Translations under genes and position numbers: made by a program | Notes under the pieces: generated by a model | Seen by the model: the letters and a program-made list of their open reading frames with translations, nothing else | Told to the model about the DNA's origin: nothing | Database searches by the model: none | Virus record (IMG/VR): IMGVR_UViG_3300040974_000011 | Origin: an uncultured virus (IMG/VR IMGVR_UViG_3300040974_000011) | Lineage: Duplodnaviria > Heunggongvirae > Uroviricota > Caudoviricetes | Strand: one strand, 5' to 3' | Length of the DNA: 64,000 nt | Shown here: one piece after another, positions 1,473 to 62,113 of the stretch | How positions within the stretch are numbered: the stretch's first letter is position 1 | Layout of the letters: each line of letters begins with the position of its first letter

Positions 1473-1732
1473 GGATCCCCGAGATAGCCGACCGTCTCCG
1501 CGAGGTCGCTGCTGAGCAGGGCCTTCCTGAGCTTGCGGGGCTGGCTGACGAGCTTCGGCGCCGGCCGTCGCAGCGTGCGCCTGCTCGATCAACCCCGATG
1601 TCTGACGAGCTTGCCAAGGACATCCGCTGGTACGCCGTCCGGTATCCCGACCTGTCTCAGGCTGAGATCGCCAAGAAGTGCGGCTGCAATCAAGGCCGTG
1701 TGAGCGAAGTTTTGAAGGGGAAGCGCGCATGA
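1469..1732 (+). CDS. small HTH DNA-binding protein
   Basis: LSQAEIAKKCGCNQGRVSEVLKG HTH. Confidence 0.7.
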   Translation: MRIPEIADRLREVAAEQGLPELAGLADELRRRPSQRAPARSTPMSDELAKDIRWYAVRYPDLSQAEIAKKCGCNQGRVSEVLKGKRA

Positions 1733-2517
1733 GTGAGAGGACGCCAGTCCCGAAATCGGTCCGCTTCGAGGTCTTCAAGCGCGACAGCTTCACCTGCCAG
1801 TACTGCGGCCAGAAGGCGCCGGAGGTGATCCTTGAGTGCGATCACATCGAGCCGGTAGCTGGTGGCGGCACCAATGCCGTGATGAACCTCATCACCGCCT
1901 GCGAGGCTTGCAATCGCGGGAAGGGTGCGCGCCGGCTCGACGAGCGGCACATCCTTGAGAAACAGCGCGGCCAGGTTGAGGCGCTCAATGAGCGCCGGGT
2001 ACAGCTTGAGATGCTGTCCGACTGGCATCAGCAGATCGCCAACGAGGGCGATGCCGTCGTTGAGATCTTGGCCAAGCACTGGGAGGCGACGCATGCCTCG
2101 ACGTGGGGTGTCAGCGACTACGGCAAGGACCTGATCCGCAAGTGGCTCCGGAAGTTCACGGCTGAAGAGCTGATAGAGGCGATGGCAGCCTCATGGGCCT
2201 CCTACTGCGAGCGCGGCGAGGATGGCGCACCGACTGAGGAGAGCCTTGAGAAGGCTTTCAGCTACATTCCGCGTGTGGCGGCCGTGCGTCGCTCCGATGA
2301 AGGGAAGCCGCACATGCGGCGGCTCTACTACGTGCGCGGCATTCTGAGGAACCGCTTGCGCTACCTGCGGGAGCAGGACGCCATAGACCTCATGGAAGAG
2401 GCCTATCAGTACGACATCGACTTGGACTGGCTGGAAGGCTTCGCCAAGCGGGTGACGAGCTGGTCTACGTTCCGACGCTCCCTTGAGCAATTCATTGAGG
2501 AGCAGCGCGGCGCATGA
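1729..2517 (+). CDS. HNH endonuclease domain protein
   Basis: RFEVFKRDSFTCQYCG...ECDHIEPVAGGG...NLITACEACNRGK. Confidence 0.85.
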   Translation: MSERTPVPKSVRFEVFKRDSFTCQYCGQKAPEVILECDHIEPVAGGGTNAVMNLITACEACNRGKGARRLDERHILEKQRGQVEALNERRVQLEMLSDWHQQIANEGDAVVEILAKHWEATHASTWGVSDYGKDLIRKWLRKFTAEELIEAMAASWASYCERGEDGAPTEESLEKAFSYIPRVAAVRRSDEGKPHMRRLYYVRGILRNRLRYLREQDAIDLMEEAYQYDIDLDWLEGFAKRVTSWSTFRRSLEQFIEEQRGA

Positions 2518-45075: not shown

Positions 45076-46149
45076 TCAGCGGGCCAATTTTTGAGGTTCG
45101 CCGAACCCACCGACTTCGTGCAGTTCGTCGTCCAGTTCCAGCGCCGCTGCGCTCTTGCTCAGAGCCTCTGGCGAGAAGCGGGCGTAAATGTCCCGTGTGA
45201 CTTTCATGTCGCTATGGCCCAAATGGCTGGCGATCTCGTCCATCGGAACGCCGGCCTCGGCCTGCCTGACGGCCGCCGAGTGGCGGAGCAGGTGCGGGTG
45301 GACATGAGGCAGGCCAGCAGCCTTTGCCGCGGTGGTTAGCCCCTTCTTGACCGACCGAACTGGCTTCCCGGCCCACTCGATCACGTAGTCCGACCGCGCG
45401 CCCTGTTTGGCCTCCAGCAAGCGCAAGCGGATCGTGCGTGTCATCTGCACGATGGCGCGTCCCTTATGCGCCGCTTTGATCTCAGGGTCTTCCAAGTCGA
45501 TCTTGTTGCGGTCGAACAGCACCCGGTCCCATGTCAGCCCAAGGATGGCCCCCGCGCGCCCGGCCGTCGCGTAGGCCAAATGCACGAACAGGGCGAGGTG
45601 CGGCGTTTTGCACGCATCGGCCAGCAGCCTGATCTGGCGCGCGGTCAGATGCCGGTCGCGGCGATCACGCACGGTCGCCGGCCGCTCAATGTCTGGTGCG
45701 GACTTGATCAGCCGATGTTTCTTGGCCCAGCGCAGCACTGTGCGGATCCGGCCTAGCTCGGTGATGATCGTGCCGTCCTTCCTGCCGAGAGAGCGACGCG
45801 CCGCGATATAAGCTCGGCAGTCGGCAATCGTGATGTCCTCCGCCGACATCGCGCCAAAATGTGGGGCTAGCGCCTTCCACTGATGCGCCATGATAGCGAC
45901 GGACGGATTGCCGGCCTTATCCCGGCGATAGGCTTCCCAAAGCTCGGCAACGGTCGTGCCCTTCGGCCTCAGAGCCTCGGCGTAGACCGCTGGCGCGCGG
46001 CGGCGAGCCTCAGTCTCGTTATCGGTGCCGAGCCGGAAACGCCGCCGTTTTCCATCCTGCCAGAAGCTGAGGACGCATTCGCCGTGAGGGAAGAGTCCCT
46101 GTCGCTTCTCTGATGCTCGAAGCCGGCCGATTTCATATTCGTCTGCCAT
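45076..46149 (-). CDS. int: tyrosine integrase
   Basis: TAGR, HLLRHSA, LGHSD..T..IY catalytic residues. Confidence 0.95.
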   Translation of the reverse strand: MADEYEIGRLRASEKRQGLFPHGECVLSFWQDGKRRRFRLGTDNETEARRRAPAVYAEALRPKGTTVAELWEAYRRDKAGNPSVAIMAHQWKALAPHFGAMSAEDITIADCRAYIAARRSLGRKDGTIITELGRIRTVLRWAKKHRLIKSAPDIERPATVRDRRDRHLTARQIRLLADACKTPHLALFVHLAYATAGRAGAILGLTWDRVLFDRNKIDLEDPEIKAAHKGRAIVQMTRTIRLRLLEAKQGARSDYVIEWAGKPVRSVKKGLTTAAKAAGLPHVHPHLLRHSAAVRQAEAGVPMDEIASHLGHSDMKVTRDIYARFSPEALSKSAAALELDDELHEVGGFGEPQKLAR

Positions 46150-49114: not shown

Positions 49115-49606
49115 TCAAGCCTCCACCTTGGCGGGCTCAAGCAGCCGGGTGATCTCGGCAGGAAGAGCCGGCTGCGTCAGTTCGGTCGCCTGCGGGGCGG
49201 CCCAGGGCTGAGCAGGCTCGTCGCTCGGCTCCGGCCCCCAATCGATGACGATCTCGCCCGTCGCCAAGAAACGGTCGCGGAGGCGCTTGAGGGTGGCGAT
49301 GGCCCGAGAGAGGGGGTAGCGGCCATCCTCCGAATAGCCAGGCGGCTCAAACAGAAGGCAGCCTCGGCCGCCGCTCAAGCCGAGCCACTCGGCCGCAAGA
49401 TCGCTGTCGGAAAGCGCCTCAGGATGCAGAACCATGATCCAGCCGGCAATGCAGGCAGCAGTTCCGCACTCGTGGATGATCTCGATGCCTCGGCCTGACC
49501 AAGTGCTATGGGCACCCTCTGAGAAGAACGCCCGCATGTTAAACTTTTCCGGCGGCTGCGCCTCCAGATGCGCGATGAGCTTGTCGAGATTGGCGACGTT
49601 CAGCAT
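49115..49606 (-). CDS. conserved phage hypothetical protein
   Basis: FNM...CGTAACIAGW motif. Confidence 0.6.
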   Translation of the reverse strand: MLNVANLDKLIAHLEAQPPEKFNMRAFFSEGAHSTWSGRGIEIIHECGTAACIAGWIMVLHPEALSDSDLAAEWLGLSGGRGCLLFEPPGYSEDGRYPLSRAIATLKRLRDRFLATGEIVIDWGPEPSDEPAQPWAAPQATELTQPALPAEITRLLEPAKVEA

Positions 49607-49826
49607 GGCTGATCCTTCTTCGCTTCGGCTGGATTGCGGGTCGGGGGTGCGGGAGGGAGGGGTGGCGCATCGCCTTCGGCGACCGGGCCGTTGCCCTGAC
49701 GGGCCGAGCCCAAGGTCTCGGCGCTCCGCGCTGCCGTCCCTTGCGCGGGCGCCAAGAACACGACGCTGAGCGGATGCACGACGACGGGGCTGTCGAGGTC
49801 GTCGAACATCACATGGATGTAATTCC
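49600..49826 (-). pseudogene. 3' fragment of the gene interrupted by the ISL3-like transposon
   Basis: NYIHVMFDDLDSPVVVHPL continues the ...VYPGTSRNY fragment at 52938-53405. Confidence 0.75.
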
Positions 49827-49867
49827 GGGTATGCGACATTCGAGGTTGCTGAGCCCATAGCTGCCCA

Positions 49868-50356
49868 TTAGGTCGATTGTGGCTTTGGAGGTTGATGGGT
49901 CGTCTCTTGCGACGCGGTGGCCATGTCATCGAGCAAGAGCGCCGCGTCTGCATACGCCCGCTCTTGCGCATCGTCTGTCATGCAGGCTTCCTTGCCCTTG
50001 AAGGAAGACACGAACCGAAAAAGAGCATCGTATAGGGCAACCGCACGAGCCTCGGCGGCCTCCGCGCGATTAAGTGCCAACCGATGAGCCAAGCATTCTG
50101 CTTGGTACACGTCTGCGTCTACGAGACCGGCGGATTTTGTGTGTGCTACAGAGCGCGCAGCACCAATGCTTTGTCCGCATTGCTCTCGGTAGAGGCTGAC
50201 CCACAATGGCTTCCTGCCGCAGACACGGTAACCCTTGATCCAGTCCTCCAACGCTCTGTTGGTGCCTTGAGCGATTATAAGCTCTATACGCAGCCGTCTG
50301 TTTTCGGCTCGCAGACGTTTAAGCGTCTCTCGTATAGGGCCAGCAGACTCGCTCAT
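49868..50356 (-). CDS. transposon cargo hypothetical protein
   Basis: ATGA-coupled to the upstream cargo gene. Confidence 0.55.
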   Translation of the reverse strand: MSESAGPIRETLKRLRAENRRLRIELIIAQGTNRALEDWIKGYRVCGRKPLWVSLYREQCGQSIGAARSVAHTKSAGLVDADVYQAECLAHRLALNRAEAAEARAVALYDALFRFVSSFKGKEACMTDDAQERAYADAALLLDDMATASQETTHQPPKPQST

Positions 50357-50571
50357 ACTGGGTCTCTCAAGTTTGCCTGCGGCGCATCGCCCGCTTCCAT
50401 GCAGAGCGTCGGGCACCCTTCGCCCCAGCAAGTCTCAGATGTCAGCGGGAGCGGGCAATCGGAAAAGCAGGACCGACACCACTCGCCAGTTAGTCGGTCG
50501 CACATGAGATACGCGGCCGTAACGTCTTTGTGGCAGTGATCGCAGGTGATCTTCCCGTCAGCATGTCTCAT
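50353..50571 (-). CDS. transposon cargo Cys-rich small protein
   Basis: CDHC, CRSC and further Cys in 72 aa; ATGA-coupled. Confidence 0.55.
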   Translation of the reverse strand: MRHADGKITCDHCHKDVTAAYLMCDRLTGEWCRSCFSDCPLPLTSETCWGEGCPTLCMEAGDAPQANLRDPV

Positions 50572-51314
50572 TGGAGCGACTCCGCTTGGCACGCGATTGT
50601 TCGGACGACCGCAAAAGCCCGCCGATCCGCCTCCTGACGCTCGTCTATCCAAGCTCCCGGAAGGTCGTTCCCTTGTGGGAGCTTGCCGAATAGTGGAATT
50701 CCATAAGCGGCCTGCGGGCTACCGCAATAGTCACCGTAGCAACCTGCGCGCTGCCAATCAGTCGATAGACGTAGGTGTGCTTCAATGATCTGGCCGCCAA
50801 TCGACTCGACGTTGAGCGGTCCGGCGTAGTCACCAAGATGAACCCTACACCATTCATTCACCATCGTGAGTTCTGGCTCAATTGGCGCGTCATGTAGTGC
50901 CCATAGATCAAAGCGTCCGAACCGATCAGATGGGACGCCGGTTGCCTGCGCCGACCACAGGATCTGGCCTCGATCTACCAATGCATCCGTGGAGACGTGC
51001 GAGCCCTCAAGATGGTCCGCCCACATCATGCCCGGCGCATAGTCGAGATTGTCGGGATCGCTAACGAAACGGGCGCCGATCCCCATCCCGTGCAGGTTCG
51101 TGATCGGCTTGACGATCACCGGGAAACGCTTTGGCGTTACTCCGAGCGGTGCGTGAGCGTAGGTCTGAGTTTCGGCAATCAGCAGACGGTCATAGACCCA
51201 TCGGTGTTTTGGGTTGGCTATCCACGCATCCGCATCCTCCATTTCGACGAGCCATTCTGCCGGGTAGGCGGGTCCCAATCGCTTCTCGTTGTGGCGCTGC
51301 CTGAACGTGCTCAT
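50568..51314 (-). CDS. ATP-grasp-like protein (transposon cargo)
   Basis: FPVIVKPITNLHGMGIGA...LEGSHVSTD...PLNVESIGGQIIEAHLR. Confidence 0.65.
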   Translation of the reverse strand: MSTFRQRHNEKRLGPAYPAEWLVEMEDADAWIANPKHRWVYDRLLIAETQTYAHAPLGVTPKRFPVIVKPITNLHGMGIGARFVSDPDNLDYAPGMMWADHLEGSHVSTDALVDRGQILWSAQATGVPSDRFGRFDLWALHDAPIEPELTMVNEWCRVHLGDYAGPLNVESIGGQIIEAHLRLSTDWQRAGCYGDYCGSPQAAYGIPLFGKLPQGNDLPGAWIDERQEADRRAFAVVRTIACQAESLQ

Positions 51315-51349
51315 TCGATCCTCAATCCGATAACGCATTGCAACCTAAT

Positions 51350-51425
51350 CCGACATCGGATACGGGTCAATAAGCGATATCGCATTGGAGGTAGCTTTGA
51401 CTCATAAACCGATATCGGTCACAAC
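51350..51425. promoter_or_regulatory. divergent promoters with three GATATC-type operators
   Basis: CCGACATCGG 51350, GCGATATCGC 51374, CCGATATCGG 51409; TTGAC on minus at 51366-51370; TTGACT-N17-CACAAC on plus. Confidence 0.65.
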
Positions 51426-51432
51426 CGTGGCC

Positions 51433-51618
51433 GTGCCAAAAGACAAGCTCGACGACAAGACGTTGGTCCGCTTCAGAGCGGGCGTGCTCGACCGCATTGA
51501 CGCGGTGGCGGGCAAGTTCCGGCGCGCAGTTTTCATCCGCGAAGCCGTCGAGACCGCACTGACAAAGGCAGAGAAGCGGCGGCCGGGCAAAGGGGCTACC
51601 GAGGGGGAGCGGCCTTGA
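51433..51618 (+). CDS. ribbon-helix-helix-like regulator
   Basis: TLVRFRAGVLDRIDAV...RAVFIREAVETAL. Confidence 0.7.
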   Translation: MPKDKLDDKTLVRFRAGVLDRIDAVAGKFRRAVFIREAVETALTKAEKRRPGKGATEGERP

Positions 51619-52907
51619 GCGATCTGCTTCGCTTGAAGCACCTGGAGCACGTCGCCGACTACGAGGAGGGCGACAAGCTCATCATCAAAGTCCAGAGCCG
51701 GAACCCGGTCCCCGAGCGCCAGTGCTGTCTCTTTGCCACCATGATCAAGAATGGCCGGAAGCTCGGGCAGCGGTATCGCGACGAGCCGATCCGGCGGCAG
51801 ACCGTCCGGATAGAGATCGACCGACAGCGCTACAAGTGCTCAGCCTGCGGGAAGACCGGCATCTACGAGGCGCTGCCGGACATCGATATCCGGCACGACA
51901 TGACGAAGAAGCTGCTCGTGCGCATCCAGAAGGATGCAGTGGAGTGGCCGTTCAGCCATGCCGCCAAGATCAACGGTGTCGAGGCGAAGCAGGTCGAGCG
52001 GATTTTCCAGGACCATGCCGACAAGGTTCTGAAAGGATACCTGCCGAAGCTCCCGCGCGTTCTCAGCATGGACGAGAAGGTGATCCGGAAGAAGGCTCGG
52101 TTCATCATCGGCGACATTGAGAACAGCGCCATGCTCGACATGCAGATGTCGAGAAGGAAGATCGACCTCAACGAGTATTTTTCCCTGTTGCCGGGTCGCG
52201 ACGATGTCGAGGTGATTTGCCAGGACATGTGGTCCACCTACCGCGAACTGAACAAGGGCTTGTTCAAGAACGCGACGGTCGTCATTGACAAATACCACGT
52301 CCAGCGGACGGCCAACAAAGGCGTCGAGGCCGTTCGGCGGCTCTTCCAGCAGGACGTGTCGAAGGCGGAGCGCATCCACCTCAAGAACAAGCAGAGCGTC
52401 TTCCTGGCCCGCTGGGGCACCGCGAAGCCACGAACCATCAACCAGTTGAACGCCTTGTTCACGTACTTCCCCACGCTCAAGCGGGTCTACGAGTGTAAAG
52501 AGAGCTACTACGAGATTTACGACGCCGCCTCGAAGTACGAGGCAAACGAGATGATGAACCAGTGGCTCGTGGATCTACCGAAGGACCTACACCGGCCCTT
52601 CAAACCGGCGCGGGACGCGCTCAACAACTGGCGCCCGTGGATCTTGAACTACTGGGATCATCCCTATACGAACGCCTACGCCGAGAGCCTGAACAACCTG
52701 ATCGGCCGGATGAACATGCAGGGCGTCGGCTACAGCCCGGAAACCCTTCGCGCCAAGGCGCTCCTCAAGCACGGCGTGTTCGGCAAGACGCAGTGGGGCG
52801 AGTGGGTCCACATCGGGCGCGAAGGCAGCGTCCCGATGGTCTGGGACGTGGGCCTCGGGGTGCCGCTATCAACCTTAGAAGCCGACTTGGAGGCGGGCAC
52901 GTTCTGA
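51615..52907 (+). CDS. ISL3-family transposase
   Basis: QRYKCSACG zinc finger, LSMDE, CQDMWSTY, VVIDKYHV, TNAYAESLNNLI. Confidence 0.92.
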   Translation: MSDLLRLKHLEHVADYEEGDKLIIKVQSRNPVPERQCCLFATMIKNGRKLGQRYRDEPIRRQTVRIEIDRQRYKCSACGKTGIYEALPDIDIRHDMTKKLLVRIQKDAVEWPFSHAAKINGVEAKQVERIFQDHADKVLKGYLPKLPRVLSMDEKVIRKKARFIIGDIENSAMLDMQMSRRKIDLNEYFSLLPGRDDVEVICQDMWSTYRELNKGLFKNATVVIDKYHVQRTANKGVEAVRRLFQQDVSKAERIHLKNKQSVFLARWGTAKPRTINQLNALFTYFPTLKRVYECKESYYEIYDAASKYEANEMMNQWLVDLPKDLHRPFKPARDALNNWRPWILNYWDHPYTNAYAESLNNLIGRMNMQGVGYSPETLRAKALLKHGVFGKTQWGEWVHIGREGSVPMVWDVGLGVPLSTLEADLEAGTF

Positions 52908-52937
52908 GCCCAAATCACCCTTCAAAGTCGCATACCC

Positions 52938-53405
52938 GTAATTCCGAGAGGTGCCCGGGTAGACGATCTCGCCCTCGCGGCCTTCCCAGTCCTTGCCCTC
53001 GCCCGTCAGGGTAATGCGCCGGCCAATCTGCGGGTCGATGCCGTAGGATCGGCGGATGTAGCCGTAGCCATCATCAGGCGGGATGCCAGGCGCCAAGCGC
53101 ACGGTCGCGAACCGCTGGTAGTCGCGGAACGGCATGTCGAGGTCCGCATCCAGATAGGCGCGGTAGCGCGCGGCGGCGGGCGACCGGGCGGACACAGGCT
53201 TGGTGTATGCCTGTCCGTAGAGGCGCGCCGTCACCTCATAGAGGCGAACCGGTTTGGTCTTGCCGCCCGCGCGAGGGATCGAAACGGCTTGCCCGCCAGA
53301 ACGCGAAGCGGTCTGGTCCGAAGGATGAGAGCCCGGACCCGAAGGGGCGCGCCCTGTGCTCTCCGCCCCGCGGGAGGCTTGGTCTTGATCGGGGAGGGCC
53401 TTCAT
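52938..53405 (-). pseudogene. 5' fragment of the interrupted gene
   Basis: Reads to EGEIVYPGTSRNY at the target duplication. Confidence 0.7.
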
Positions 53406-53956
53406 GGCTGGGCCGCCTCAGCTTCATCTTCGGCCATATCGGCGCGAAGCTCTGCGGCACGTTCGGGGTCAACAATGTCCCAATCTGCCAGGGTCATGCA
53501 GTCCTCGCAGACGGCTTTGCCGTTGATGTTCCAGCCGCCCATCTCCTTCGCAGTCTCGTAATCGCAGCGTGAGCAGATCGCCTCGCTTCCGCGGTCCAGC
53601 CAATCGCCGCTGCCGATGCTGCTCTCCGGTCGCCCATCCCACTCGGGGACGCGCGTCGCCTCGTAGCCGCTGCGCGCCAGACAGGGCTCACACTCGCAGC
53701 CATCTGGGCCGGCGAAATCCTCGTCGTCCGCGCCTTCGCAGTCGTCACAGCGCATGAGGACCGCGGCCTCGCGCGAAGCGGCCCGGATAATCTCATGATC
53801 CCACTCGCCGGGCGTTCCGACGATCCATGTTGGCAGCGGTGGCTTCACGGCCTTCGCGACGGGCGCAACGGGAACGCTTGCTCCAGCCGGCAGCCCGGCA
53901 ACGGTAGCCGCTGCTCCAGCGGCCGCGAGGAAGGATCTGCGGCTCAGTGCTGTCAC
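53402..53956 (-). CDS. Cys-rich protein with twin-arginine-like N-terminus
   Basis: LSRRSFLAAAGAAA; several CxxC motifs. Confidence 0.6.
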   Translation of the reverse strand: MTALSRRSFLAAAGAAATVAGLPAGASVPVAPVAKAVKPPLPTWIVGTPGEWDHEIIRAASREAAVLMRCDDCEGADDEDFAGPDGCECEPCLARSGYEATRVPEWDGRPESSIGSGDWLDRGSEAICSRCDYETAKEMGGWNINGKAVCEDCMTLADWDIVDPERAAELRADMAEDEAEAAQP

Positions 53957-54708
53957 TTCTGCTCTCCCGTCGAAGGGGCTTCAGCGAGGCTGATCATCCG
54001 ATTGACGAGTGCGAGCGCAGATTGCTGAAGTTCCAGCCGGGTCGGCTCCAGCTTCTCCTTCGCGGCGTCCCCGGCGGCGTCCCAGGCGGCGGCCCCGGCG
54101 GCGGCCCAGGCGGCGTCCCCGGCGGCGGCCCAGGCGGCGTCCCAGGCGGCGGCCCCGGCGGCGGCCCTGGCGGCGGCCCTGGCGGCGGCCCAGGCGGCGG
54201 CCCCGGCGGCGGCCCAGGCGGCGGCCCAGGCGGCGGCCCCGGCGGCGGCCCTGGCGGCGGCCGCATCCTGTCTTGCCGCCTCTAGCGGGCCGCGCAGCGA
54301 TGGCGTATTCGCGAAGTCGGTGATCTCGGGCAGGCCCGACAGCGCATCGGCTTGGGTCGTCAGACCGGCGAGCCGCAGCCATGCCGGCGTATGCACTCGC
54401 ACAAGCCAGTCGGCGGCCATGGTGGCGCGGCGGTTCTCCAGTGCCTCGGATCCGCGCGTCCCGACGAGGCGTGGGATCAGCGGCAAGATCAGCGCATCGC
54501 GGTCTTCTTGCGGGAGGCCGTCGTTCCATGCGCGCATGAAGGCGCCGATGACGGGCGATGCGCAGGTCGGATGGTCGGACCAGGGCTCGCCGGCGATAAA
54601 GGCCACAGCCTCCATAGCGCACATCTCGCCTTCGCTCTCTCGGTGAGCGCCCTCAGAGAGGGTAACGACCTTGGCGAGGCGTGCGTGATCAATCGTGATG
54701 GCGGTCAT
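53953..54708 (-). CDS. phage protein with AA(W/G/R)A tandem repeats
   Basis: CAMEAVAFIAGEPWSDHPTCASP domain plus a repeat tract. Confidence 0.75.
   Translation of the reverse strand: MTAITIDHARLAKVVTLSEGAHRESEGEMCAMEAVAFIAGEPWSDHPTCASPVIGAFMRAWNDGLPQEDRDALILPLIPRLVGTRGSEALENRRATMAADWLVRVHTPAWLRLAGLTTQADALSGLPEITDFANTPSLRGPLEAARQDAAAARAAAGAAAWAAAWAAAGAAAWAAARAAARAAAGAAAWDAAWAAAGDAAWAAAGAAAWDAAGDAAKEKLEPTRLELQQSALALVNRMISLAEAPSTGEQK
54062..54262. repeat. 12-bp tandem repeat tract (GGCGGCGGCCC[C/A/T]-like)
   Basis: Seen directly; encodes AAWA/AAGA/AARA/DAAW units. Confidence 0.9.
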
Positions 54709-56071: not shown

Positions 56072-56553
56072 GCGATCTCTCCCGAGCGGTCGGCTTCTGA
56101 AACACGACGGCGGGCAGTGACGAGGACCGTCAGAGGCACGGCTTCGACGCCGGCCTCGCTGAACATCGTCGCGGCGGCCTCGAACTCGTCGGCAGGCATG
56201 GACGTCTGGCCGGGGCCGTAGACGACGGCACGGATGCCCGCCTGGATCAGCGTGCGGGCACAGGCAGCGCACGGGTGGTGGGTCACGTAGACTGAACAGC
56301 CGTCCGTCCGAATGCCGTGCTGAGCGGCGAAGGCCGAAAGGTTCGCTTCCGCATGGCTGGCAAAGAGGTACTTCGCTGGCCGCTCGCGGCGCTCGGGCAG
56401 GTCGTCCACGCCAGCCGGAGGGCCGTTGTAGGCCGTCAGCAGCACCGTCCGACCATTCGGGGCGACGAGGACCGCGCCGACCTGCGTGCTGTCCTTCGAC
56501 TTCGTGGCGGCGTGCTGAGCGAAGCCCATGAGGTAGGAGGGCCAGTCGGTCAT
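56068..56553 (-). CDS. dCMP deaminase
   Basis: SKD..QVGA...YNG...HAEAN...YVTHHPCAACA. Confidence 0.9.
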   Translation of the reverse strand: MTDWPSYLMGFAQHAATKSKDSTQVGAVLVAPNGRTVLLTAYNGPPAGVDDLPERRERPAKYLFASHAEANLSAFAAQHGIRTDGCSVYVTHHPCAACARTLIQAGIRAVVYGPGQTSMPADEFEAAATMFSEAGVEAVPLTVLVTARRRVSEADRSGEIA

Positions 56554-56969
56554 GCCGCCCTCCGCATGAACCGGCCGCGCTCATCGCGCCTCTGCGGTGG
56601 CTTGGGTCGGCCAGCGAGAGTGACGACGCGAGCCGCCTTGTATCCAGCGAGCGTCAGGTCGTAGACGAAGCGCCGAAACTCACCCATGTTGTACTTGGGC
56701 GTCCCGCGGTATGCCGCGAGGAAGAACATGAACGGCTCAAGCGGGTAGTGCCCCTTGATGCTGTTGCACTCAAAGCAAGCGATGACGAGGTTTTCGTTTC
56801 GGTCGCGAGCCGTGCCGAGTAGCTGCGGCTCAATATGATCCCGCGTCGCCTGGCAGGCTTTGTTCGCCCGAGCCTCCGGTGAGTGGGCCGGGAAGACGCG
56901 GCGGTCGCAGTAGGCGCACACGCCGCTGTGTAGCCTACGCTTCTTGCCTGGGATGACGTGCATATTCAT
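56550..56969 (-). CDS. HNH endonuclease
   Basis: CAYC...TRDHIEP...NLVIACFECNSIKG. Confidence 0.8.
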   Translation of the reverse strand: MNMHVIPGKKRRLHSGVCAYCDRRVFPAHSPEARANKACQATRDHIEPQLLGTARDRNENLVIACFECNSIKGHYPLEPFMFFLAAYRGTPKYNMGEFRRFVYDLTLAGYKAARVVTLAGRPKPPQRRDERGRFMRRAA

Positions 56970-57400
56970 GCTGCCACCTTCCGAGTGCTGGCAGCATCGG
57001 CCTGGATCAGCGTGGGATCGCTCCAAACCACACCCTTCTCCGCCCCGAAGACGAAGAGGCTTTCGATCAGGTCCGACATCTCGGACTTGGTCAGCTTGCG
57101 GGTGCTGATGCCGAGCGGCACGAGGCCGTTGCCGTGAAGGGCAGGGGCCATCCGCACTTCCTTGCCGAGGGCGGCGAGCGCGATCAGCTTCCAAGCCTCC
57201 GGCTCGTAGTGGAGGCCAAAGTGCTCAACCTGCTTGGAGATGTCGCCCAGCATGGCCCAGAGCCGACGATTTTGAATGTCGGTGCGCCGAGGCGCGGAAA
57301 ACTCCACGAGCCAGCCGATCGGCGCCTTGCTGATCCAGTGAAGAGCCTTGCGGCGGATCTCTTCGTTGGCGATGCGGAGGGTGTGACGGTCGCCGCTCAT
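56966..57400 (-). CDS. ninB: NinB/Orf recombination protein
   Basis: RTDIQNRRLWAMLGDISKQV...WK...STRKLTKSEMSDLIE..FVFGAEKGV.W. Confidence 0.85.
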   Translation of the reverse strand: MSGDRHTLRIANEEIRRKALHWISKAPIGWLVEFSAPRRTDIQNRRLWAMLGDISKQVEHFGLHYEPEAWKLIALAALGKEVRMAPALHGNGLVPLGISTRKLTKSEMSDLIESLFVFGAEKGVVWSDPTLIQADAASTRKVAA

Positions 57401-58056
57401 TGAGCAGCCCTCCGTTCGCGGATCAGGCCGCCCAGCCGCTCAGCGTCCTCGGCCTCAAGAGCCTTGAACCGCTGCCGGAATTCAGGGTCGTCGGTGATGA
57501 CCTTCACGGCCGCCTCGCCCGAGACCTTCCAGAGCTTGGCGCTCAGTTCGCGTGCGATGCGCTGTGAGGCTGTCGGCTCAGAAGCCTCACGATCTACTGC
57601 AGGCCGCGGCGTAGCGGCTGTGTGGCCGCTTGTGCGCGGTGCAGGGCGTTCGATGTCGCGGCTGGGCATAGCTGCCTCGCCGTCGTCATCAGTCGGCGGC
57701 ACGCAGAGGGCTGCCATCAAGGCGTAGCGCAGGCCGTAGGTGACCGCGGAGCCCAGCCCCTGCGGGTCCCGCTTGGCGAGCGGCACATGCAGCGTGGAGC
57801 GCATCCATTCGCCCGAGACGTGGGCGAGCATGGTGGTGATCTCCACACAGCCATCGACCATCCGGCCGGGCGCCTGCGAGACGATGAGGCCGTTTGCCTG
57901 GAGAGCAGGGCGTGCCGTGTCGAGAACCGCCTCCAGGGTGGCGTAGCGGTTCTTGAAGTGCGGGTTCTTGGCATCCTTCACGACGCCGGTAAGCACGCCC
58001 TGGGCGCCGTGCAGCGCCTTGCAAAGCTCGCCAATGGTGGGGCTGCTCTCAATCAC
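57397..58056 (-). CDS. erf: ERF-family ssDNA annealing protein
   Basis: KDAKNPHFKNRYATL...PQGLGSAVTYGLRYAL...DDDG. Confidence 0.9.
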   Translation of the reverse strand: MIESSPTIGELCKALHGAQGVLTGVVKDAKNPHFKNRYATLEAVLDTARPALQANGLIVSQAPGRMVDGCVEITTMLAHVSGEWMRSTLHVPLAKRDPQGLGSAVTYGLRYALMAALCVPPTDDDGEAAMPSRDIERPAPRTSGHTAATPRPAVDREASEPTASQRIARELSAKLWKVSGEAAVKVITDDPEFRQRFKALEAEDAERLGGLIRERRAAQ

Positions 58057-59235
58057 GATGCGGCGTCCTCTGCTGTGACGCGGCGCGGCTCGAACTCCTG
58101 GCACTTGCCGTCGAAGTTCACGCGCTCGCAGAGCTGGTACGGAGGATCCGGCGAGTACTTGGGATGCACGAAGGCGTAGCCGGCTCGGGTCGGCGCCTTC
58201 ATGCAGCGGTATCGCCAGGGCTTGGTTTCGACGCGCGAGGCGGGGTGAACCCATTCGCAGCTATCGCAGAACACGGGGGTCACGCGGCCTCCGCACGCTG
58301 TTCGATGCCGAGGTACGCGAGAGCCAACTCAAGCGTGTCGAAGCGCTGTTCCCGGCCCGTCAGTGGCGCAGGAGCCCGGTCGTAGAGGATCGGCACAAGA
58401 TCGACCGCCGTGCCCTCTGCCGGGCAAATGCAGGCTACGGCACGGGGCAGGTAGTCGACATGGAAGACGCGGATGGTGCGGGAGCCGTAGACGGTCTCGG
58501 TGCGCCAGGGGTTCACGACCGCCCCTCCGCTTTCGCAAGAGCCTGACGGGCGCGCTCAACGTTCCGGTCAAAGTCGAGCATGACGGTATGCGTGCCGTCG
58601 ATGTCGTCAATGAACCATTTGAGAGCCACCAACAGGTCGGGCGCGGCCGCCATCAGATGAGTGTTCGCGACCGCCTGCTTTCGCGGCAGGTCGTTGGCAT
58701 AGACGACTGCCAGACAATGCTTCCCCGCAAACACGGCGGGATCGTCGGTGGACCGACCATCAGTGTCGAAGGTCGTCCAAGGGGCGGCAGTGTGCTGGGC
58801 CATCAGAACGCCTCCGCGCTCTGGACGAGCGGCAGGCGGCTGCTGTGACCCGGAAGGCGCGGCCAAGACCGCGGATCTTTCGCAGAGACCTTCTGCCGGC
58901 ATTCTGACTTGATCGCGTCGAGATCCGAGGCGAGGGCCGTGCTGGCGCTGGCGGCCGCATTGACAGTGCGTTCGATCACAGCGGCGGTGTACGTCGGGCA
59001 ACCGCGGCCAACGGCCTCCATCAAGCTCTCGACCTGCTTGAGGTGTTCGCCCAGGTTCCAGTATGCGGCCTGGAGTTCGGACCTGCTGAGCATGTTAGCC
59101 TCCAACTGCGATACGAATTGCGATGCCGACCACACCAAGAGAGCCGGCGATGATGAGGACGAGGCAGGCGATGATCGCGGCATCGTCTAAGTCGAAGCCC
59201 GGTTCGTCTTCCGGGTACGTGTCGAGATCGACCAT
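58053..59235 (-). other. small early genes (58053-58283, 58280-58516, 58513-58803, 58803-59093, 59095-59235)
   Basis: Coupled short ORFs; 58513-58803 has the HTAAPW...ANTHLMAAAPDLL motif. Confidence 0.6.
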
Positions 59236-61119: not shown

Positions 61120-61749
61120 TCAGTTAGATATCCGCTTCCACTGCTTCGCGGGGACGATGGACATGACTTCGGCGACCCGCTTCACGTCGACCTCGTCCTG
61201 ATCCGGGGCGTTGTGGCTGCCGATAGTGAAGGACCCGTCACGGGCGTGTTTCTTGAGGGTTTTTAGGAGATAGGTGCCGTCTCCGTCTTCTAGAACAACC
61301 TCTTGCCCAATCAGGGCTTCCGGCTCGCCATCGTACCATTTGGCGATGACGACTTCGCCGTCCTTGATCCGCGGGAACTGCGACTGCCCACGAGCCTCAA
61401 GGGCGAAGCAGCCTTCGGGAAGCGCGTAGGGAAGTTCGATTTCACCGAGCGCCAATTCGCCCTCCTCGACCCACCGGATGGCCTCACCCAAGCCAACCGT
61501 TCCGACCACGTCAACAACCGTAGATCGGTTCGCGGTTCCTTCCCCAGTTAAAAGCCAGCTCGCCGACACGCGGAATTTTCGGGCGTATTTGAACGCCTCC
61601 TCCTCGCTGTAATCGCGAGCGCCCGGCTCCCCAGCGCGTTCGTGGGCGTTGTAGGTCGATACTGCCACGTCCAGCGCGAATGCTGCGGCGCGGCCGGAAC
61701 GGTATCGGCGCTCTCGCGCCCACCGCAATCTCTCACCCTTCGTCTTCAT
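61120..61749 (-). CDS. cI: CI-like repressor (HTH + S24 peptidase)
   Basis: GERLRWARE HTH, VSASWLLTGEG, FALEARGQS.FP, YLLKTL. Confidence 0.9.
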   Translation of the reverse strand: MKTKGERLRWARERRYRSGRAAAFALDVAVSTYNAHERAGEPGARDYSEEEAFKYARKFRVSASWLLTGEGTANRSTVVDVVGTVGLGEAIRWVEEGELALGEIELPYALPEGCFALEARGQSQFPRIKDGEVVIAKWYDGEPEALIGQEVVLEDGDGTYLLKTLKKHARDGSFTIGSHNAPDQDEVDVKRVAEVMSIVPAKQWKRISN

Positions 61750-61786
61750 AACGCGAAAAGTAGCAACTTGGCTGCTACGAAGGGGG

Positions 61787-61815
61787 TTGATCGGAGTTGC
61801 TACATATCGTAGACA
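61787..61815 (+). promoter_or_regulatory. PR-like promoter overlapped by an operator
   Basis: TTGATC-N17-TAGACA; GCTACATATCGTAGA (61799-61813) is the reverse complement of the PL operator consensus. Confidence 0.75.
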
Positions 61816-61822
61816 CTCTGTC

Positions 61823-62113
61823 ATGAGCGCGGTTCAAGCCATCATCGCGAAGTTTGAGACGCCAGCGAAGTTCGGGCGGGCGATCAATTTGAAGGTCGTC
61901 AACCACGCGCACCAGATGTGGGACCGGATGTCGATCCCCGCGCTGCGGTGGCCAGACGTCGTCGAGGCCGCTTCTGAGCTAGGCATCAAAGGCGTCACAA
62001 TCGAAGCTCTCATGGCCGCCCACGTGGCCGACGAGCCCCTTCGCCGAGCAAAACTTCAGCAGACCCGCGCCCGTCAGAAGTCTTCAAGTCAGCCGGAGGC
62101 TCGTGCGTCATGA
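61823..62113 (+). CDS. cro: Cro-like protein
   Basis: Divergent from cI; II..F..PAKFGRAI...RMSIP..RW. Confidence 0.7.
   Translation: MSAVQAIIAKFETPAKFGRAINLKVVNHAHQMWDRMSIPALRWPDVVEAASELGIKGVTIEALMAAHVADEPLRRAKLQQTRARQKSSSQPEARAS

Follow-up and report, generated by a model that had tools for sequence, protein, structure and literature searches.

An ISL3-family insertion sequence with passenger genes, probably recently inserted, in an early-region gene of a temperate phage

The DNA analysed, a stretch of 64,000 nucleotides from an uncultured virus of the Caudoviricetes (IMG/VR record IMGVR_UViG_3300040974_000011; hereafter the window), very probably contains a passenger-bearing insertion sequence (IS) of the ISL3 family that is intact, was inserted recently and is apparently active. 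The phage, which is temperate and contractile-tailed, has it within a small gene of the early region. ISs are uncommon in phage genomes.

Results

Ends of the element and the interrupted gene

The ends of the element and the two parts of the interrupted gene are as follows:

49600..49818, minus strand: interrupted phage gene, C-terminal part (72 codons plus stop)
49819..49826: target-site duplication, left copy (GTAATTCC, 8 bp, same letters as 52938-52945)
49827..49896: left end, ~70 bp, 92-97% conserved across relatives
49827-49850: left terminal inverted repeat (GGGTATGCGACATTCGAGGTTGCT)
49881-49896: subterminal repeat of the left end, within the conserved ~70 bp
52868-52883: subterminal repeat of the right end, from a repeat search
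52914..52937: right terminal inverted repeat (reverse complement, GGGTATGCGACTTTGAAGGGTGAT)
52938..52945: target-site duplication, right copy (GTAATTCC, read directly)
52938..53405, minus strand: interrupted phage gene, N-terminal part (156 codons)

Read from the sequence, the element is 3111 bp long (window 49827-52937, copies of the duplication excluded). At its left junction ...GGATGTAATTCC is followed by GGGTATGCGACATTCGAGGTTGCT..., and at its right junction ...AGTCGCATACCC is followed by GTAATTCCGAGAGG... The first-pass annotation had placed a transposon at 49819..52945; the element was found there, but that interval counts in both copies of the duplication. The inverted repeats of ~22 bp and the 8-bp duplication that it described were confirmed: GTAATTCC stands on both sides, and the repeats, which are imperfect, are identical in the outermost 11 of 11 bases and agree in 18 of 22 (our own count). 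In a repeat search the terminal pair was the longest among the 119 inverted pairs of the region (28 nt, 82%). The GC content is 0.64-0.69 in the flanks and drops to 0.57-0.60 in the cargo half. Neither a sigma-70-type promoter nor a convincing terminator was found within the element.

On the minus strand, the phage reading frame encodes ...VYPGTSRNY through the right duplication and RNYIHVMFDD through the left. The two halves join up in one reading frame, as had been proposed from the letters alone, and they match uninterrupted homologues end to end. The C-terminal fragment aligned in 18 of the 69 homologues of the N-terminal half (E<0.01), and in the homologues read as examples its match comes directly after that of the N-terminal half; in homologue P0055 the N fragment extends up to residue 105 and the C fragment starts from 106. 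An empty-site allele of this phage was looked for, and none was found.

Transposase, regulator and control region

The genes within the element, with the region between the divergent units, are:

49868..50356, minus strand: passenger gene 3 (162 aa, no family match)
50353..50571, minus strand: passenger gene 2 (72 aa, 8 invariant Cys)
50568..51314, minus strand: passenger gene 1 (248 aa, ATP-grasp fold)
51315..51396: divergent control region, with palindromes CCGACATCGG (51351) and GCGATATCGC (51374)
51385/51397-51618, plus strand: CopG/RHH-like regulator gene (ORF from 51385, TTG at 51397 after GGAGG)
51409: third palindrome, CCGATATCGG, read from the sequence
51615..52907, plus strand: ISL3-family DDE transposase (430 aa, TTG start)

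This gene order is the one read initially, with a ribbon-helix-helix (RHH) gene and a transposase gene divergent from a coupled three-gene operon. The initial assignment of the transposase to the ISL3 family held, with PF01610 (1.7e-44, 152.9 bits; cut-off 23) and NCBIfam NF033550 (ISL3; 216.5 bits; cut-off 180) both above their cut-offs; it also matched phrog_5749 (3e-86). The Zn_ribbon_ISL3 and HTH_Tnp_ISL3 domains scored below cut-off (19.3 bits against 25.5, and 14.4 bits against 27.4, respectively) and lie in the expected order and position. An ISL3-like transposase match was obtained in 50 of 50,697 phage records. The best identity was 36.7% in phage records and ~35% at most among plasmid-borne ISL3 (PLSDB). 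No isoform-level match to a named IS was found in phage or plasmid records, and the matches of a DNA search covered just 3-6%.

The regulator gene likely starts at the TTG at 51397. Its stop codon overlaps the TTG start of the transposase gene, an arrangement of translational coupling, and the codons for its conserved basic/acidic tail (KRxPGKGAxEGE) overlap the start of the transposase gene. The protein had no match in Pfam. When a profile built from seven element-borne proteins was compared with the PDB, the three best matches, all with weak E values, were CopG-family chains (6iya, 0.0092; 7by2, 0.011; 7etr, 0.027) and covered the strand-helix-helix core, and two weaker matches were antidotes of the CopG/Arc/MetJ family. 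At E of about 0.01 the regulator is likely a CopG-like RHH protein. The likeness to CopG/Arc/MetJ regulators extends from this core (E 0.009-0.027) to the operator-like palindrome arrays nearby. The control region is nearly invariant in four elements, one of which has a different adjacent passenger.

The passenger genes

The three minus-strand passenger genes are joined by ATGA overlaps at 50568-50571 and 50353-50356, which bears out the earlier description of a 72-aa Cys-rich and a 162-aa protein coupled to an ATP-grasp gene. The last 10 codons of passenger gene 3 (..HQPPKPQST) fall in the conserved left end. Comparisons with the window gave dN/dS values of 0.07-0.17 for the ATP-grasp and Cys-rich genes, which points to purifying selection on the passengers; the range was 0.07-0.12 for the former, and 0.11-0.17 for the latter against L004 and L007, which bear the ATP-grasp gene, and L009. 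PADLOC returned 0 families for all five element proteins at E<=0.1.

Passenger 1 gave no match in Pfam or NCBIfam. The modelled structure (AF2, pLDDT 81.4) indicates that it adopts the ATP-grasp fold, as the first reading had suggested: in Foldseek the model matched PylC at 8e-9, with 384 matches at E<=0.001 of which the best 50 were all ATP-grasp enzymes, and in VIA all 50 of the 50 entries listed were ATP-grasp (Z 11.6-13.5, ~215 residues). A profile match to PylC was obtained at 0.0065. K69 (VKP) is nearly invariant, and E170, E178, H180 and R182 are invariant, in 16 homologues; in the alignment with PylC the conserved residues, among them acidic ones near the C-terminus, pair with its FVKP and vIE..R segments. 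The fold is common to passenger 1 and PylC, RizA, YwfE/BacD, PurK and biotin carboxylase. Unlike larger ATP-grasp ligases, passenger 1 has just 248 aa and an E-x-H motif, with H in place of the N of the usual metal motif, E-x-N. Full-size ATP-grasp enzymes carry an N-terminal domain before the nucleotide-binding strands; in the model, residues 1-50 form only short helices ahead of the nucleotide-binding strand with VKP. Because H replaces N and only short helices precede these strands, the predicted ATP-grasp activity is not assured. Homologues occur at more than 555 loci in alphaproteobacterial genomes and in 47 cyanophage records, and passenger 1 flags an uncharacterised, Pfam-less ATP-grasp family.

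The 72-aa protein is presumed to be a two-zinc protein. Its gene and the ATP-grasp gene were inherited together in four elements. Since L009 has the Cys-rich gene without the ATP-grasp gene, the two are not an obligate pair.

Copies at other sites

Public runs contain identical or near-identical copies of the element with other flanks, known from assembled contigs, and three of them have 8-bp duplications of their own. In run X4, from an unrelated study, a single gap-free contig covers 49826-52937 with 0 differences and has AAAAAAAC on both sides. Both element ends were present in runs X13 (flanks GCGAAATG/GCGAAATG) and X14 (GCTATAAT/GCTATAAT), and in run X7 the left flank differs from that of the window. 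Related contigs likewise have their own 8-bp duplications (L006, GACAAAAG; L007, GAAAATCA; L005, GACCGGAC; L016, GGGAAATT; L009, GAAAAACC; L010, AACTTCGC), and L006 carries the passengers of the window at yet another site. At the relatives L101 and L098 matching duplications were not found. By our own count A and T account for 53 of the 88 duplication bases; the DNA has ~65% GC. Homologous transposases are bounded by the same kind of ends: contigs show seven independent 8-bp duplications, and Caulobacter phage DMCA has another. The variation in cargo that the first-pass annotation proposed to catalogue was also observed: DMCA and the viral-contig relatives have a common layout with different passengers. 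The passengers lie inside the mobile unit, since copies that share both ends and passengers are found elsewhere with duplications of their own, and to judge from these alignments the whole 3.1-kb element, passengers included, moves as a unit.

The passengers had been said to point along the phage early operon. This is so in the window, where they are co-oriented with the flanking leftward phage genes; across the insertions compared it is so in part, with co-orientation in ~6 of 9 by a crude ORF heuristic. The L007 insertion has the opposite orientation, and those of L005 and L006 are at convergent or divergent boundaries. The description of the element as phage-adapted was too firm, since the element is also present in runs X13 and X14, in which the phage flank is not covered, and the viral-contig relatives came from the search of a viral collection; adaptation to phages is plausible.

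Modular histories of the passenger block and the transposase

The new part is the modularity of the element. The window element and that of L006, a provirus, are identical over 1717 bp (49881-51597), which include the passengers and the RHH gene, whereas their transposase genes share 58-88% per 50 nt, about 70% overall. In L009 the RHH identity is 78-83% but that of the transposase 50-54%, and between L005 and L006 the values are 40% for RHH and 96% for the transposase. Identity switches at the same junctions in other element pairs. As far as identity along the sequence can tell, these comparisons show that the passenger/RHH block and the transposase have discordant histories, and that the window element is a mosaic with its sister element. 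The 1.7-kb identical block, set between elements whose transposase genes differ by ~30%, implies that the exchange was recent.

Two readings would undo the unit or its mosaic structure. If only the transposase part were an IS, the minus-strand genes would be ordinary phage genes between its real end and a chance repeat, which would suit passengers that are phage-like (passenger 1 matches phrog_3577, and its nearest Atlas clusters are viral) and run in the direction of the phage early genes. We regard this as extremely improbable: a 3.1-kb unit with both ends occurs at other sites with its own 8-bp duplications (the runs; L006), in intact homologues of the split gene the junction falls exactly at the unit's outer ends, and the GC drop spans the whole unit. 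That the passenger block shared with a sister element of ~70% transposase identity is an assembly chimera is also very improbable. The window is indeed metagenome-assembled, misassembly commonly occurs at repeats, and contigs L004 and L099 break at the element ends. The window form, however, was assembled identically in the sister assemblies L102, L103 and L099 and as the single gap-free contig of X4, the sister form comes from a separate record, and other pairs have the same switch points. A mobile, mosaic 3.1-kb IS is the preferred reading.

Discussion

Comparison with known elements

Passenger-bearing ISs are mostly considered in the context of plasmid-borne metal or drug resistance, and ISPpu12 carries lspA and a MerR-like gene besides czcD. 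The first-pass annotation held that ISL3 elements typically make 8-bp duplications and usually carry only the transposase; the former agrees with what is described, but passenger-bearing ISL3 elements are already known, ISPst2 and ISPpu12 being described as such (PMC6305408, PMC3735179). ISPst2 is 2,985 bp long and has inverted repeats that open with GGGTATCCGGAATT...; its duplications are 8 bp long and A/T-rich (TTTTTAAA, CAAAAAAG) (PMC6305408). Like the window element, it is ~3 kb long and has a small transcriptional regulator and passenger gene(s) beside the transposase; its passengers, an ArsR regulator and a permease, differ (PMC6305408). In the window the regulator is of RHH type, with its gene in translational coupling with that of the transposase, and phage-like orphan genes make up the passengers. 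The accessible text on ISPpu12 describes 24-bp imperfect inverted repeats, 8-bp duplications, a czcD passenger and independent multi-copy transposition, and within it no cargo-swapping is reported (PMC3735179). Imperfect inverted repeats, 8-bp duplications and passenger genes are common to ISPpu12 and the window element; unlike the latter, ISPpu12, as described there, is plasmid- and chromosome-borne in Pseudomonas and relatives and has metal-related passengers.

The element of Caulobacter phage DMCA (PQ480021.1, 22871-25477) resembles that of the window in having three small genes divergent from an RHH-like gene and an ISL3 transposase, palindromes with GATATC at their centre in between, an 8-bp duplication (GAGAAACC) and a location in a temperate phage, near the integrase in DMCA. 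Its transposase is 36.7% identical, and its passengers and its end (GGCTAACC...) differ. The GenBank record of DMCA annotates a 'transposase' and hypothetical proteins only; the element is unannotated.

Proposed mechanism and role of the passengers

In the account that we hold with good confidence, the transposase would bind the terminal and subterminal repeats and insert the unit at A/T-rich octamers. The CopG-like RHH protein may bind the GATATC-centred palindromes between the divergent genes, and so set the level of the passenger operon and of its own transcript, from which the transposase would be translated by coupling from its weak TTG start. In the orientation seen in the window, leftward phage early transcription would first cross the transposase gene in antisense and go on into the passengers in sense, which would damp transposition and limit polarity. 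Diverged elements may swap passenger sets through homologous recombination within two conserved anchors, presumably the 70-bp left end and the junction of the RHH tail with the transposase start. The ATP-grasp protein is predicted to be an ATP-dependent carboxylate-amine ligase that would benefit the carrier phage or the host.

For the passengers themselves two other roles were weighed, both close to the peptide-modifying or (anti)defence module that the first-pass annotation had suggested for the ATP-grasp/Cys-rich pair. The trio could be a peptide- or protein-tagging system, in which the ligase adds an amino acid or peptide to a small zinc protein (LysX/LysW) or matures a ribosomal peptide (graspetides). 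Amino-acid ligases (PylC, RizA and YwfE/BacD) are among the nearest folds, and the translational coupling and co-inheritance of the ATP-grasp and Cys-rich genes would fit such a system. LysW-type carriers, however, need a fixed acidic C-terminus, the ligation site, whereas the C-termini of the six Cys-rich proteins compared vary in length and sequence, with no conserved acidic tail; moreover, L009 lacks the ligase, and no Cys-rich neighbour was found at the 80 chromosomal loci of ATP-grasp homologues examined. We consider tagging unlikely. Less so, but still on the doubtful side, is that the passengers are a counter-defence or host-takeover module for the carrier phage. The element and its relatives lie in early or accessory regions of temperate phages, and the passengers, which are under purifying selection, form variable sets of orphan genes, as is typical for accessory genes of phages. 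Against it, the proteins match no PADLOC model and no known anti-defence family, the element is also present where no phage flank was seen, and ligase homologues are common in chromosomes of Alphaproteobacteria.

We favour the passenger-bearing IS described above, and add a broader possibility tentatively. The element may belong to a 'cassette-carrier' transposon family in temperate phages of marine and freshwater Alphaproteobacteria, in which a transposase module and an operator-RHH-passenger module would recombine freely at two anchors. A single transposition machine would thereby carry ever-changing sets of phage accessory genes among phages and the chromosomes of their hosts. One of these cassettes would consist of the ATP-grasp ligase and its ZZ-like zinc-finger partner, with a protein of the host or the phage as target in the course of infection. 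The passenger-bearing ISL3 lineage recurs among contigs of phages and proviruses, and a single cultured Caulobacter phage carries it as well; if this is general, phage accessory genes would spread by this route independently of phage recombination.

The element and the phage gene that it splits

By its gene content, the window is a temperate phage. Plus-strand genes match PHROG families of terminase, portal, major head protein, tail sheath, tape measure and baseplate, and the element is located in the leftward block, where the Erf-like gene and the integrase lie on either side of it. The relevant features, in window coordinates, are:

45076-46149, minus strand, integrase (PHROG)
49881-49896 and 52868-52883, subterminal inverted pair of the element (repeat search)
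51615-52907, plus strand, ISL3 transposase
from 49818, minus strand, split gene, C-terminal part (frame kept: IHVMFDD..., 72 further residues)
53405..52938, minus strand, split gene, N-terminal part (156 residues, ending ...VYPGTSRNY)
57397-58254, minus strand, Erf-like annealing protein (PHROG)
61120-61824, minus strand, CI-like repressor (PHROG)

Two HNH-endonuclease-like genes were also recognized by PHROG matches (1678-2517, plus strand; 56550-57194, minus strand). The 251-aa ORF at 53953-54708 (minus strand) carries Ala/Trp/Gly-rich repeats (AAAWAAA...) in its C-terminal half, with a local GC content of up to 0.795, and matches two PHROG families without known function, phrog_3416 and phrog_18326.

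Read directly from the sequence, the left tip of the element is GGGTATGCGAC..., from position 49827, and its reverse complement ends at 52937. The octamer GTAATTCC abuts both ends (49819-49826 and 52938-52945), and the element is therefore 3111 bp long. The first-pass annotation, which had described a cargo transposon at 49819..52945, was right about what the element is and where it lies, but its span took in both copies of the duplication. The terminal inverted repeat is the longest among the 119 inverted pairs of the region (28 nt, 82%), and the GC content, 0.64-0.69 in the flanks, is only 0.57-0.60 across the passenger half.

When the N-terminal half of the split gene was compared with 1.84 billion representative proteins, 70 relatives came up at E≤0.001, mostly of 120-185 aa. 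The C-terminal fragment aligned at E<0.01 in 18 of the 69 that remained once the window's own truncated form was set aside. In the examples inspected, its match begins directly past the end of the N match: in the homologue P0055 the two matches meet at residues 105 (end of N) and 106 (start of C), and in P0051 at 115 and 116. Since the fragments adjoin in homologues and the frame is continuous, both halves are one gene cut by the insertion, as the first pass had read it. As to an empty site, a protein search of viral contigs gave no relative of the N-terminal half. In the four public sequencing runs compared in detail with the window (X4, X7, X13 and X14) no contig joined across the element, so that they showed no empty site of this phage.

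Transposase and control region

The family assignment made at first sight was borne out by profile matches of the transposase to ISL3 models (PF01610, 1.7e-44; NF033550, 216.5 bits against a cut-off of 180). Its N-terminus is conserved (MSDLLRLKHLEH), and its TTG start overlaps the stop of a small upstream gene. This upstream gene is ribbon-helix-helix (RHH)-like and has no Pfam match; with a profile of seven such proteins, the three best PDB matches were to CopG-family regulators, over a strand-helix-helix core (E 0.009-0.027). Three palindromes, CCGACATCGG, GCGATATCGC and CCGATATCGG, are situated between this gene and the divergent operon; they hardly vary among four elements, of which one has a different adjacent passenger. 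Folded as single-stranded DNA, the control region gave a z of -1.96. Scanning the element revealed no sigma-70-like promoter site, and terminator-like sites at chance level.

Passenger genes

The three minus-strand passenger genes are linked by ATGA stop/start overlaps. Passenger 1 (248 aa) matches phrog_3577 (6.5e-11) and has no Pfam or NCBIfam match. Its model (pLDDT 81) has an ATP-grasp fold: Foldseek gave 384 matches at E≤0.001, with PylC at 8e-9 and the matches listed being ATP-grasp enzymes, and in VIA all 50 of the matches listed were ATP-grasp enzymes (Z 11.6-13.5 over ~215 residues). A sequence profile also reaches PylC (E 0.0065). The structure search of the model thus recovers the fold of the ATP-grasp-like enzyme that had been proposed. 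Passenger 2 (72 aa) has eight invariant cysteines. Its model reaches a pLDDT of only 60.6, and Foldseek found no match to it at E≤0.001; ZZ-type and B-box zinc fingers predominate among the weak matches (E 0.2-2), a possible likeness that serves as a lead only. The predicted complex of the ATP-grasp and Cys-rich proteins scored 0.05 against a mark of 0.32, which weighs neither way. Passenger 3 (162 aa) has no functionally characterized relative, and no Pfam, NCBIfam, PHROG or PADLOC match was found; its feature scores in the Atlas do not exceed 0.89, and the pLDDT of its own model there is 0.55. In pairs with the window, dN/dS was 0.07-0.12 for the ATP-grasp gene and 0.11-0.17 for the Cys-rich gene, and these two are therefore real genes under purifying selection. 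Any function of the passengers is unproven.

The ATP-grasp family is not rare. Relatives of passenger 1 are encoded in at least 555 genomic stretches, and the best 80 of these are 35-51% identical and come mostly from alphaproteobacterial assemblies (such as Reyranella, Hyphomicrobiales and Aestuariivirga). Metagenomic homologues that resemble the chromosomal ones (36-47% identical) have ~300 aa, including a C-terminal extension that is absent from the element's copy. A crude neighbourhood analysis of the 80 chromosomal homologues found no conserved partner gene, and no relative of the Cys-rich, 162-aa, RHH or transposase proteins near any of them. The widest real-looking neighbour clusters covered at most 21 of the 80 loci, in a clustering that is noisy because ORFs were called naively. 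Relatives with ~32% identity are present, under hypothetical annotations, in 47 records of Synechococcus myoviruses. The family as a whole (chromosomal loci L018-L097 and phage records H55-H74 among them), with at least 555 alphaproteobacterial loci plus T4-like cyanophages, has no Pfam model, and all members are annotated as hypothetical.

Related elements

Relatives were sought in viral and metagenome contigs with the element proteins and the 24-nt left end. Nine further elements with both ends mapped were found, together with L014 (a left end, without transposase) and the element of Caulobacter phage DMCA; lengths range from 1392 to 3111 bp.

Duplications and passengers of the element and its relatives
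Window: ATP-grasp, Cys-rich and 162-aa genes
L006: 8-bp duplication GACAAAAG; passengers as in the window
L007: 8-bp duplication GAAAATCA; ATP-grasp and Cys-rich genes as in the window, third shorter or partly different
L004: passengers as described for L007
L009: 8-bp duplication GAAAAACC; Cys-rich gene and a 117-aa CxxCxGxG-like protein, no ATP-grasp gene
L010: 8-bp duplication AACTTCGC; phage-type domain protein, RHH fused to a MUG113/T5orf172 domain
L005: 8-bp duplication GACCGGAC; small unrelated orphan genes
L016 (1884-3275): 1392-bp derivative with both ends; 8-bp duplication GGGAAATT; small unrelated orphan genes
L101 and L098: no 8-bp duplication; small unrelated orphan genes
L014: small unrelated orphan genes

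An 8-bp duplication, as reported at first sight for the ends of the window element, is likewise present in L005, L006, L007, L009, L010 and L016, each with its own sequence. At the DNA level the element matched no cultured phage, and in plasmids it had short ISL3 matches only. The left-end pattern (≤2 mismatches) was absent from 401 sampled genomes of one class, which says little.

In the GGGTAT-type left ends (window 49827-49896; L004-L007, L014, L016, L098 and L101) the last passenger ORF enters the conserved end and always ends at one shared TAA, which lies 13 codons from the tip. These last passengers share the tail ..(H/D)QPPKPQST, even where the protein is otherwise unrelated; at the window left end both other frames run through the tip without a stop. 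In L009 and L010 the last passenger ORF stops within the terminal repeat itself (..STSNDE). The fused MUG113/T5orf172 (GIY-YIG-like) domain of L010 (4465-5004) is N-terminal on the RHH-like regulator (Pfam 1e-09). The L016 derivative has kept three small passengers and an HTH-like gene, with only a stub of the transposase, and adjoins another, different ISL3 element, whose transposase has 532 aa and which has an RHH-like gene of its own.

Orientation was scored by a GC3-based ORF heuristic. By this measure the passengers share the direction of the flanking genes in the window, as had been noted, and also in L101, L098 and L010; in L004 and L016 they run with the one scorable flank. L006 lies between divergent and L005 between convergent genes, and the passengers of L007 oppose the left flank. 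Co-orientation across the relatives is suggestive only.

Mobility and module exchange

Parts of the window stretch were found in 20 runs; these belong to 11 studies and comprise marine, plankton and invertebrate metagenomes as well as several coded organisms. Two of the runs are possibly the source of the window. In X4 a single contig spans 49826-52937 with no differences, between the flanks ...GTCAAAAAAAC and AAAAAAACCTGAGG..., with the duplication AAAAAAAC. The duplication is GCGAAATG in X13, where the phage flanks were not seen to be covered, and GCTATAAT in X14; in X7 the left flank is other than that of the window. The window's own right junction is also present in X4 and X7. Judged from these sequences, the element moves as a unit, and there is evidence that it is currently active. 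Contigs of X13 and X4 match the element perfectly to window positions 51400 and 51804, and then continue into unlike sequence, a hint that the samples contain other copies, mosaic or truncated.

Between the window element and L006 there is no difference across 1717 bp (49881-51597); this block takes in the three passengers together with the control region and almost the whole RHH gene. In the left end, 5 of the first 54 positions differ, and the two transposase genes are 58-88% identical per 50 nt (71% in protein). Such a mosaic could be an artefact of assembly, but this is unlikely, because the window form recurs, assembled identically, in independent data. Across the family, RHH and transposase identities are discordant: L009 and the window group share 78-83% in RHH and 50-54% in transposase, whereas L005 and L006 have transposases 96% identical and RHH proteins 40% identical. 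Identity switches at the junction of RHH tail and transposase start for L006 versus L005, and at the boundary of passengers and control region for L004 versus L009. In every variant the tail of the RHH protein (KRxPGKGAxEGE) and the beginning of the transposase are conserved. We infer that modules may be exchanged by homologous recombination at conserved anchors.

Comparison with known ISL3 elements

Passenger-bearing ISL3 elements are already established. ISPst2 (2,985 bp) has repeats that begin GGGTATCCGGAATT, 8-bp A/T-rich duplications, and an ArsR regulator and a permease as passengers (PMC6305408), and ISPpu12 has 24-bp repeats, 8-bp duplications and czcD (PMC3735179). The window element shares this passenger-bearing design, but it is far from known ISL3 elements in sequence, with transposase identities of at most ~35-37% to plasmid and phage records. 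The same layout is found in a cultured phage: the DMCA element (L107 2188-4794; PQ480021.1 22871-25477) lies beside the integrase, with the 8-bp duplication GAGAAACC, an L005-type RHH-like gene and GATATC palindromes. Its record annotates only a transposase and hypothetical proteins, and our searches found no literature describing it or joining ISL3 with a ribbon-helix-helix gene. Publications listed for ISL3, phage genome and cargo concerned other topics, as far as titles and the opening of abstracts go.

An adaptation of the element to phages is unproven. Its interest lies in its residence in phages, the evidence of current activity, the sharp exchange of modules and an uncharacterised ATP-grasp family.
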